DNA from: Escherichia phage RCIP0363
Length of the DNA: 64,000 bases
Sequence record: PV464739.1
Strand: one strand, 5' to 3'
The notes beneath the pieces were generated by a model. It made no database searches, was not told the origin of the DNA, and was given only the letters and a program-made list of their open reading frames with translations. Position 1 is the stretch's first letter; each line of letters starts with the position of its first letter. Below, piece by piece: positions 28,559 to 29,351 of the stretch. The translations under genes were made by a program, and so were the position numbers.

Positions 28559-28586
28559 AAAAGGCCCATATGGGCCTTTGTTTATT
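28559..28586. terminator. Bidirectional terminator
   Basis: Hairpin aaaggcccatatgggccttt flanked by A-run and T-run, between the convergent endolysin and small membrane protein genes. Confidence 0.55.
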
Positions 28587-28794
28587 TTACGGCTTCAACT
28601 TGGACGGGCGGAGCGGAACTTGTATCAATGTCTGGCAAGTCGAAGTAATACCCCGCCATACCAATCACACCCACAATCGCGGCCCGTGCCACCTTGCTGC
28701 TAATTGACTCCCCAATAAGCTTTACCAACAGGGATAAGATTTGAGACGTCAAAGCCTTTTTCAGCCTTTTGTTTTCTTCCAAATCTTTCTGCAT
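28582..28794 (-). CDS. Small membrane protein, holin-like candidate
   Basis: ATG at 28794 after gggtgg SD (track start is a TTG at 28812); charged N-terminus and hydrophobic segment AAIVGVIGMAGYYF. Confidence 0.4.
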   Translation of the reverse strand: MQKDLEENKRLKKALTSQILSLLVKLIGESISSKVARAAIVGVIGMAGYYFDLPDIDTSSAPPVQVEAVK

Positions 28795-28808
28795 AACTAC
28801 CACCCATG

Positions 28809-29351
28809 TCAACGCACTTCCTGTGTCTTAACATTACCTGAAGCATCTCTCAAGGGCAGTGGATAGTAGGCCATTTGGTAGTCTGATACGCCTTCAATGT
28901 GATAAAACACGATTACGTCTTTGCTGTTGATGAGCATGTTAACGACATCTGATTTATCTTCTGGAGTGAGTATTAGTGCGCCGCCTGTCCTGCTGTCTAC
29001 TGCAACAGGGTATGTCTTGTCGACAAGGCCGCTGTCCAATGTATTATACCTGACAACGATTTCAGGGGCATCAACTTTTGCCATTGACATTCCGAACACA
29101 AACGACACTACTTGTCGACCGCGATCATTCATTACGCACATCTTTTCTTTGTCAAATCTTTCTTTTATTACGTCGTATTTGTTCCAGCAGAACTCAAAGG
29201 ATTGCCCATTGTTGAAATATCTTGTCAAAACTTTTGCACTTCCATTCGGCGGCGTAAACATATTTTCAGCCGATGCAGTCTTGGTGAAGAATATAACTGT
29301 CAGCATAGCCATGATGATGATCAAAACAATCTTTAATTTGTTCGCTTTCAT
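28809..29351 (-). CDS. Secreted / periplasmic protein of unknown function
   Basis: N-terminal signal-peptide-like MKANKLKIVLIIIMAMLTVIFFTKTASA; aaggtga SD; own promoter region after the ligase terminator. Confidence 0.5.
   Translation of the reverse strand: MKANKLKIVLIIIMAMLTVIFFTKTASAENMFTPPNGSAKVLTRYFNNGQSFEFCWNKYDVIKERFDKEKMCVMNDRGRQVVSFVFGMSMAKVDAPEIVVRYNTLDSGLVDKTYPVAVDSRTGGALILTPEDKSDVVNMLINSKDVIVFYHIEGVSDYQMAYYPLPLRDASGNVKTQEVR

Follow-up and report, generated by a model that had tools for sequence, protein, structure and literature searches.

The closest described relative of the locus considered here comes from Pantoea phage PA1 (Kylevirus), whose lysis-related protein, PA1-LRP, has 73 residues (Front Microbiol 2024, PMC11538084). 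The locus itself is a minus-strand cassette of two genes in Escherichia phage RCIP0363, within a 64,000-nucleotide stretch of sequence record PV464739.1 (hereafter the window), and codes for an exported protein of 180 residues and a small protein of 70 residues that is homologous to PA1-LRP. When PA1-LRP was expressed, the optical density (OD) was 13–20% lower over 24 h, a mild inhibition of growth, leakage of β-galactosidase was raised and 24.65% of the cells were dead, as against 1.03% with the vector (PMC11538084). Killing was stronger when the protein was fused to the endolysin; a 20-residue hydrophobic peptide of PA1-LRP was sufficient in the fusion and was about equal to a foreign transmembrane domain (TMD). 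TMHMM called no TMD in PA1-LRP (PMC11538084). These effects amount to membrane activity and are unlike the abrupt triggering of a holin.

In phage T4, RI is a periplasmic antiholin, RIII a cytoplasmic antiholin and Sp a periplasmic inhibitor of lysozyme. A second relative of the small protein is gp48 of Pseudomonas phage 14-1 (ORF47, PP141_gp48), with 38% identity. Its gene was found by ONT-cappable-seq to be transcribed alone, as the monocistronic unit TU021, between a start site and a termination site of its own, and Putzeys et al singled this unit out as possibly moron-like (PMC10914365).

Over the region 27900–29500 the window and Escherichia phage vB_EcoM-Ro157lw share 99.9% identity, and the identity to 27 other records is 90–98%; all 28 are Wifcevirus myophages with E. 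coli or Shigella as hosts. Wifcevirus is distantly related to the PB1-like Pbunavirus phages of Pseudomonas (PMC11990801; PMC6753283). For the biocontrol of E. coli O157 the Wifcevirus phages are candidates, and in phage therapy the Pbunaviruses count among those most used. Three annotated records were inspected (Mansfield, Ro157lw and Bas98); in these both genes of the cassette are labelled 'hypothetical protein' and no holin is annotated.

The locus resembles that of PA1 closely. The small protein is of the same length class as PA1-LRP (70 against 73 residues), has the same architecture and is 54% identical to it over 50 residues (BLASTP, E 5e-13; PA1-LRP sequence from the supplement of PMC11538084). 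The order of genes is also alike, with ligase, a secreted protein of about 185 residues and the small gene being followed by a convergent glycoside hydrolase family 19 (GH19) endolysin and tail fibre. PA1 differs in its host and genus, and in that the place upstream of MazG, taken by spanins in Wifcevirus, is occupied by a 3-TMD protein. With 14-1 gp48 and its Pbunavirus orthologues the small protein shares the family phrog_5165, the convergent position and the independent transcription unit; gp48 differs in its longer, acidic and Lys-rich tail and in having no secreted-protein gene upstream.

We favour, with a probability of about 0.4, a reading in which the cassette is autonomous, the small protein is an accessory or regulator of lysis and not the main holin, and the exported protein acts in the envelope. 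The host RNA polymerase would transcribe the two genes from a sigma-70-type promoter, with terminators bounding the cassette on both sides. The precursor encoded by the first gene would be exported by the Sec system and cleaved after ASA28 to give a periplasmic protein of 152 residues. The basic N-terminal part of the small protein would lie in the cytoplasm, its Gly/Ala-rich helix would associate with the inner membrane or weakly span it, and its acidic, Pro-rich tail would be periplasmic. Placed like this, the small protein may perturb or tune the inner membrane and thereby aid or time the release of the cytoplasmic endolysin, as an antiholin-like protein or a helper instead of the principal holin. 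The exported protein could be a partner for its tail or, alternatively, a superinfection-exclusion factor. With the small protein a family that was described recently and is poorly understood gains a new member, and the secreted protein belongs to an uncharacterised one. Should the small protein regulate lysis it would represent a new accessory class common to several hundred sequenced phages; if not, the two are simply a pair of conserved hypothetical genes.

The small protein

The small gene (28582–28794, minus strand; 70 codons and a stop) starts at the ATG at 28794, which is preceded at a distance of 5 nt by a ribosome-binding site (RBS), GGGTGG (28800–28805, minus strand). An equivalent RBS is annotated in Mansfield, and the same start is used in the GenBank records. 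The product is therefore 70 residues long from the RBS-preceded start, rather than the 71 given in the original prediction. An in-frame TTG is found six codons upstream (28795–28812), overlapping the stop codon of the 180-residue reading frame as TTGA, and would give a protein of 76 residues; at the equivalent position L005 (10543–10560), a metagenomic relative, has an ATGA-type start. With these upstream starts the protein would be lengthened by a few, hydrophobic residues (MTWVVV or MMVTV). They could reflect a dual start or translational coupling, or be a by-product of the in-frame GGTGG of the RBS.

Sequence similarity, architecture and position as the last minus-strand gene facing the endolysin all place the protein in the LRP family. 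The sole significant match among the PHROGs is to phrog_5165, of unknown function (E 3.4e-8); the best match to a holin PHROG, phrog_6384, is not significant (E 0.093). A tblastn search recovered the family from every Wifcevirus record, from Kylevirus and from about 289 records of Pbunavirus. A word-indexed homologue search with the 70-residue protein returned one near-identical cluster.

The protein consists of a basic N-terminal part, an amphipathic helix that is closed by an invariant GE, an Arg, a hydrophobic core and a tail. The core is formed by 14 uncharged, Gly/Ala-rich residues (AAIVGVIGMAGYYF) between the invariant Arg and an Asp or Glu; after it come an invariant G-x-Y, then Asp or Glu, and a tail that is acidic, Pro-rich and variable in length. 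In the nine-sequence alignment L15, G28, E29, R37, G48 and Y50 are invariant. The polarity is also conserved, with a net charge of +4 to +9 in the N-terminal part, 14 residues in the core and a net charge of −2 to −6 in the C-terminal part, and this would fit an orientation with the N terminus inside and the C terminus outside. The original prediction described a single-pass membrane protein, a description that goes further than the data allow: the core has 14 residues, the maximum Kyte–Doolittle mean over 19 residues (KD19) is 1.34, where 1.6 is the usual threshold for a transmembrane segment, and PA1-LRP is negative in TMHMM.

The tail carries a motif, YY[FY][DE]-x-x-P, in each of the eight sequences compared (from seven lineages) that come from phages with the gene for the 180-residue protein, being loosened only in L011, where there is an extra residue before the Pro, and in L014, which has IYYD. 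The motif is absent from 14-1, the phage without that gene. This tracking is a weak hint of a partnership between the two proteins, coming as it does from a single phylogenetic contrast.

Organisation and transcription of the cassette

Both open reading frames (ORFs) are real genes under purifying selection. Within the genus the ratio of nonsynonymous to synonymous substitution rates (dN/dS) is 0.11 for the 180-residue gene and 0.04–0.3 for the small gene, where substitutions are few, compared with 0.02–0.06 for the endolysin and the ligase; both are also conserved at the protein level far outside the genus. The first gene lies at 28809–29351 (minus strand), with an RBS, AAGGTGA, read at 29358–29364. 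It is separated from the small ORF by a gap of 14 nt that contains the RBS of the latter.

The original prediction of an autonomous minus-strand unit with its own promoter is borne out by comparison. A sigma-70-type promoter, TTTACT-16 nt-TATACT, was located at 29383–29410 (minus strand) from a consensus scan combined with conservation, the scan by itself being at chance level (4 sites found, 3.6 expected). In an alignment of the intergenic region from five phages (the window, Mansfield, Bas98 and the metagenomic relatives L005 and L006, whose 180-residue proteins are about 62% identical) the hexamers (TTTACT; TATACT or TATAAT) and the 16-nt spacing are kept and the sequence of the spacer varies, a pattern that we read as the footprint of a functioning promoter of this type. 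The AAAAGG core of the RBS is invariant in the same alignment, with L006 differing at the last three bases. Upstream, an intrinsic terminator at 29433–29454 (minus strand), annotated in Mansfield too, closes the spanin-MazG-ligase unit; its stem and T-tract are invariant in the five phages, with the loop alone varying, and it is predicted to insulate the cassette from the ligase operon.

At its other end the cassette finishes, as had been proposed, at a bidirectional terminator common to it and the endolysin gene. This is a palindromic GC-rich hairpin (AAAGGCCCATATGGGCCTTT; 28560–28579) with runs of T on both sides, and the small gene's stop codon is 2 nt from it. The annotators of Mansfield (CPT) placed terminators on both strands at the equivalent hairpin, and in phage 14-1 a bidirectional terminator likewise lies between the endolysin and the small gene.

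A host-type promoter suggests expression beyond late times. Such non-late expression would fit exclusion functions and, more speculatively, could also be connected with the short latent period of Wifcevirus; unusually fast lysis and a very short latent period are given for the genus in the BASEL paper, summarising one earlier study (PMC11990801).

Two copies of the motif ATTTACTTTC, 10 nt apart, follow closely on the upstream terminator (29395–29430, minus strand). The second copy contributes the −35 hexamer, and both ATTTAC cores are invariant in the five phages; phage Kyle has a related motif, CTTTACTTTT. The repeat may be a site for a regulator or an UP-like element.

The exported protein

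That the 180-residue protein carries a Sec-type signal peptide, as originally predicted, is supported by the homologues. The N terminus reads MKANKLK, IVLIIIMAMLTVIFF and TKTASA, followed by EN, which is the n/h/c pattern of a Sec signal peptide: an n-region with three Lys, an h-region with a 15-residue hydrophobic core whose KD19 of 2.39 is the highest value in the window, small residues at −3 and −1 as expected for signal peptidase I, and no lipobox. At least eight homologues retain this pattern and the AxA site despite divergent sequence. The signal peptide is encoded by 29351–29268 (minus strand), with cleavage predicted at ASA/EN, and the predicted mature domain of 152 residues, rich in β-structure, by 29267–28812. 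Two Cys are near-invariant among the homologues.

The family is small. It is found in 31 phage records, among them the 28 of Wifcevirus and the Pantoea phages Kyle and PA1, and is confined to enterobacterial lineages, being absent from the approximately 289 Pbunavirus records. In a set of 5.8 billion proteins it forms 14 clusters, and an exhaustive profile search of 1.84 billion proteins gave six representatives, one of which, an Ig-repeat protein, was spurious. None of 11 members of the family has a Pfam match, even at E values up to 10, and the PHROG scan returned two non-significant families of unknown function and nothing else.

Modelling with AlphaFold2 of the full-length protein from a four-sequence alignment gave a pLDDT of 42.7. 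With the signal peptide removed and 11 sequences aligned, the model of the mature domain was confident (pLDDT 90.6, pTM 0.85) and contains ten strands and one helix. Its best fold matches are IalB of Bartonella henselae (PDB 3DTD) and a flagellar LPHT ring component, both of which are envelope-associated. Among the models in BFVD the best structural matches are uncharacterised phage proteins, such as one from Serratia phage MTx (E 3e-7); Foldseek against the PDB returned TEAD matches alone, which were judged meaningless. The mature protein is probably a disulfide-bonded, β-rich periplasmic protein, and its fold may be IalB-like. Sequence identity to IalB is 8% and the family has no match to the Pfam IalB family (PF06776). 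Since it is not known what IalB does in molecular terms, the match offers a fold but no function: the model fits an envelope location and yields no mechanism. The comparison does put forward one new family of periplasmic proteins, for which the fold model is confident.

There is some likeness to the accessory proteins of T4, as an analogy only: T4 is also a virulent phage with a periplasmic protein bearing a signal peptide and with small modulators of lysis or exclusion that are not holins. The PHROG scan of both proteins of the cassette showed no similarity to Sp, Imm, RI or RIII, and Sp has a helical fold in contrast to the β-rich fold modelled here. The universal LRP-type protein, joined in enterobacterial lineages by its co-transcribed secreted partner, might constitute an unrecognised lysis-control system of PB1-like phages. 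In one form of such a system a weakly hydrophobic holin-like or antiholin protein would have its periplasmic tail read by a secreted sensor; by analogy this could correspond to T and RI of T4, to which the two proteins are unrelated in sequence, and with a host-type promoter it could add to the short latent period. We regard this as a long shot.

A different explanation is that the cassette is a moron-like envelope module, expressed early, which, through the periplasmic protein acting alone or with the small one, blocks superinfection or alters the envelope in the manner of T4 Sp or Imm and has no link to lysis. The arrangement of terminator, sigma-70 promoter, genes and terminator is that expected of a moron, with its own promoter and flanking terminators, and the 14-1 homologue was itself flagged as a possible moron-like independent unit. 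The 180-residue gene would suit such an origin, given its restriction to enterobacterial lineages, its tiny family, its uncharacterised phage proteins as structural neighbours and its G+C content of 41.8%, compared with 46.2% for the window. The small gene, on the other hand, has a typical G+C content (46.5%) and belongs to the core genes of the whole PB1-like group instead of turning up sporadically, and the sole experimental data on its family point to membrane damage and synergy with the endolysin. Similarity to known exclusion proteins was also missing from the PHROG scans. The receptor of Wifcevirus phages is the O-antigen (PMC11990801), which is not directly maskable by a soluble periplasmic protein, so that the receptor masking raised in the original prediction is unlikely for the 180-residue protein. 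On balance we consider a moron-like module a reasonable though rather doubtful explanation.

Conservation of the small gene beside changing lysis genes

Nine lineages were compared: the window; Mansfield and Bas98; L005, L006 and L011 (Wifcevirus-like metagenomic contigs); L012; L014; Kyle and PA1; and 14-1. All nine carry the small gene in convergent orientation to that of the endolysin, and in every relative it stands at the 3′ end of the block running from helicase to ligase. By contrast, the endolysin that closes the tail-fibre operon has undergone at least two replacements in close relatives, the flanking genes being constant. It is of the GH19 type in the window, L006, L012, Kyle, PA1 and 14-1, a 150-residue phrog_90 lysozyme in L005 (10803–11255) and L011 (6822–7277), and a GH108 enzyme with a PG_binding_3 domain in L014 (6849–7400).

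The slot upstream of MazG varies as well. Wifcevirus-type genomes have an Rz/Rz1-type pair of i- and o-spanins there; 14-1, Kyle, PA1 and L014 have a 201-residue 3-TMD protein with a glycine-zipper N terminus (L003 2563–3168, L004 3020–3625, L010 2121–2726, L014 3606–4211); and in L012 it is empty. Judged from these sequences, one genomic slot has swapped different membrane or lysis genes. The 3-TMD protein belongs to phrog_1544, with a sub-threshold match to GTA_holin_3TM, and has been named 'putative holin' in one Pbunavirus paper; it has no homologue in the window. The published 'PA1-LVP' construct (Table S2, PMC11538084; L010 2121–3314) covers the 3-TMD gene and a MazG-like gene with a stop codon between them. 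As two genes are spanned, the negative result with LVP does not cleanly test whether the 3-TMD protein is a holin.

L012 has a 68-residue, two-TMD holin of phrog_1356 (E 1.4e-23; Pfam DUF7940; 4200–4406, minus strand) directly downstream of its GH19 endolysin and facing the small gene. A corresponding locus is L013 (1333–1548), and no homologue of the L012 holin occurs in the Wifcevirus DNA examined. Because the small gene is constant beside varying holin candidates, an accessory or an unrelated core function is to be expected of it, and not that of the holin itself.

Candidates for the holin

No membrane protein adjoins the endolysin gene. There is no recognisable holin near it, as the original prediction had noted, or anywhere in the 64-kb window. 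Literature searches for a holin of Wifcevirus or Pbunavirus turned up nothing more than inconsistent automatic annotations. The window omits about 4.4 kb of the phage genome, which was read in Ro157lw (MH051335.1). It contains, between the second tail-fibre gene and the terminase, the genes of gp16 (8853–9068, minus strand), which has 71 residues and two to three strong hydrophobic segments (KD19 2.32), and of gp14 (7872–8213, minus strand), which has 113 residues, a signal peptide and a C-terminal anchor. The gene for gp16 is the first of a minus-strand block that also holds gp14 and the second tail fibre. The protein is 96–100% conserved in all 28 Wifcevirus records, was found in no other phage record and has no family annotation. 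By topology gp16 is the most holin-like Wifcevirus protein and by classical criteria would be a better candidate than the 70-residue protein, though only a candidate.

The original prediction named the small protein as the best holin candidate, which is understandable from the window alone. The part of that proposal relating the protein to lysis agrees with the published data on PA1-LRP; the assignment as a holin is weakened by the weak core, the comparative data and the stronger candidate outside the window. A different holin elsewhere in the genome, which the prediction had taken as counting against itself, has a partial match in gp16. The comparison narrows the question of the holin and puts forward two candidate genes, those of the 70-residue LRP-type protein and of gp16.

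It might still be argued that the 70-residue protein is the sole true holin of Wifcevirus, a class-III-like protein that oligomerises through one weakly hydrophobic, Gly-rich TMD. Like the canonical holins (lambda S105, the S21 pinholin, T4 T and phrog_1356) it is small, has charged ends and spaces small residues along a helix, with G42, G45 and G48 on one face, and its gene lies beside that of an endolysin without an export signal, a position kept through three replacements of the endolysin. The want of a recognisable holin in the window or of an annotated one in the three records would be explained, and PA1-LRP permeabilises cells and synergises with the endolysin. Set against this, the single uncharged core of 14 residues is below the threshold, PA1-LRP is negative in TMHMM, the C terminus is acidic and not basic as in canonical holins, and the toxicity of PA1-LRP is slight and unlike holin triggering. 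The gene does not form a lysis cassette with the endolysin, being on the opposite strand in a separate, convergent unit with a sigma-70-type promoter. Nor is it the only candidate: L012 retains it despite the phrog_1356 holin, Pbunavirus and Kylevirus retain it alongside the 3-TMD protein that some authors call a holin, and Wifcevirus has gp16. We consider it improbable that the small protein is the sole holin.

Two other possibilities within the window were rejected. A pair of minus-strand ORFs after the terminase (1465–2117) was considered since Pseudomonas phage JJ01 has, in roughly the same place, a gene called 'holin' via PHASTER; they have no hydrophobic segment and no holin PHROG. A 354-residue ORF rich in Phe, Leu and Ser (43406–44470, plus strand) appears multi-TM by hydropathy, is of low complexity and was judged spurious; in the approximately equivalent region of Bas98 genes are annotated on the minus strand. 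The only other small hydrophobic ORFs of the window are at 6447–6584, 48186–48290 and 62013–62210 (plus strand) and at 63401–63514 (minus strand).

Weighing the role of the small protein in lysis

Several observations weigh against an accessory role of the small protein in lysis. The functional data on the LRP family are those on PA1-LRP alone, and these are weak, the effects being modest and obtained with fused proteins or by overexpression for 24 h; a two-hybrid test of PA1-LRP against the endolysin was negative (PMC11538084). Searches of Pfam, NCBIfam and PDB sequences gave no relative for either protein of the cassette. Early or constitutive expression is what a sigma-70 promoter complete with its two hexamers suggests, and genes for exclusion or takeover would be better served by it than genes for lysis. 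The neighbourhood of the endolysin may be no more than an effect of two conserved operons meeting at one place. Finally, a KD19 of 1.34 is reached by 21 of the 94 predicted proteins of the window, including the terminase and MazG; with a core hydrophobicity in the range of the soluble proteins of this genome, the small protein could itself be soluble.

If soluble, it might be a cytoplasmic two-helix regulator or adaptor in replication or transcription, its proximity to the endolysin being incidental. The strongly basic N terminus and amphipathic first helix would suit this, as would the position at the 3′ end of the helicase-to-ligase block in every relative. Such a role is harder to reconcile with the cassette having its own promoter and being insulated by a terminator from the ligase operon, with the membrane damage caused by PA1-LRP and its hydrophobic peptide, and with the conserved succession of basic N-terminal part, uncharged core and acidic C-terminal part. 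A soluble regulator seems to us an unlikely identity for the small protein, and a membrane-associated accessory of lysis is the reading that we prefer.

Neighbouring genes

The endolysin, at 27912–28556 (plus strand), is the final gene of the plus-strand structural operon and matches Pfam Glyco_hydro_19 and the endolysin family phrog_181 (E 8e-70). Inspection of its N terminus revealed no TMD, signal-anchor-release (SAR) or other hydrophobic segment, in keeping with a cytoplasmic enzyme of the GH19 type. The other recognisable lysis function is the spanin pair, 2.5 kb from the cassette, with an i-spanin at 31091–31609 (minus strand; Rz-like spanin phrog_1327, E 9e-27) and an embedded o-spanin at 31177–31455 with the lipobox LGISSC; both are also labelled as i- and o-spanin in Mansfield and Bas98. 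A terminator lies directly upstream of the spanin unit, for which there is no obvious promoter.

Preceding the endolysin in the structural operon is a tail fibre gene (26059–27903, plus strand). According to the BASEL paper Wifcevirus tail fibres have a Gp12-like receptor-binding domain (PMC11990801). The C-terminal part of the fibre in the window (27400–27830) is rich in His-x-His, occurring for example as GSHNHTG, AHSHG, NHHHD, HVHG, SHTHG, NHSHS and AHTHD, and these repeats are reminiscent of the metal-binding HxH motifs in fibres of the T4 gp12/gp37 type.

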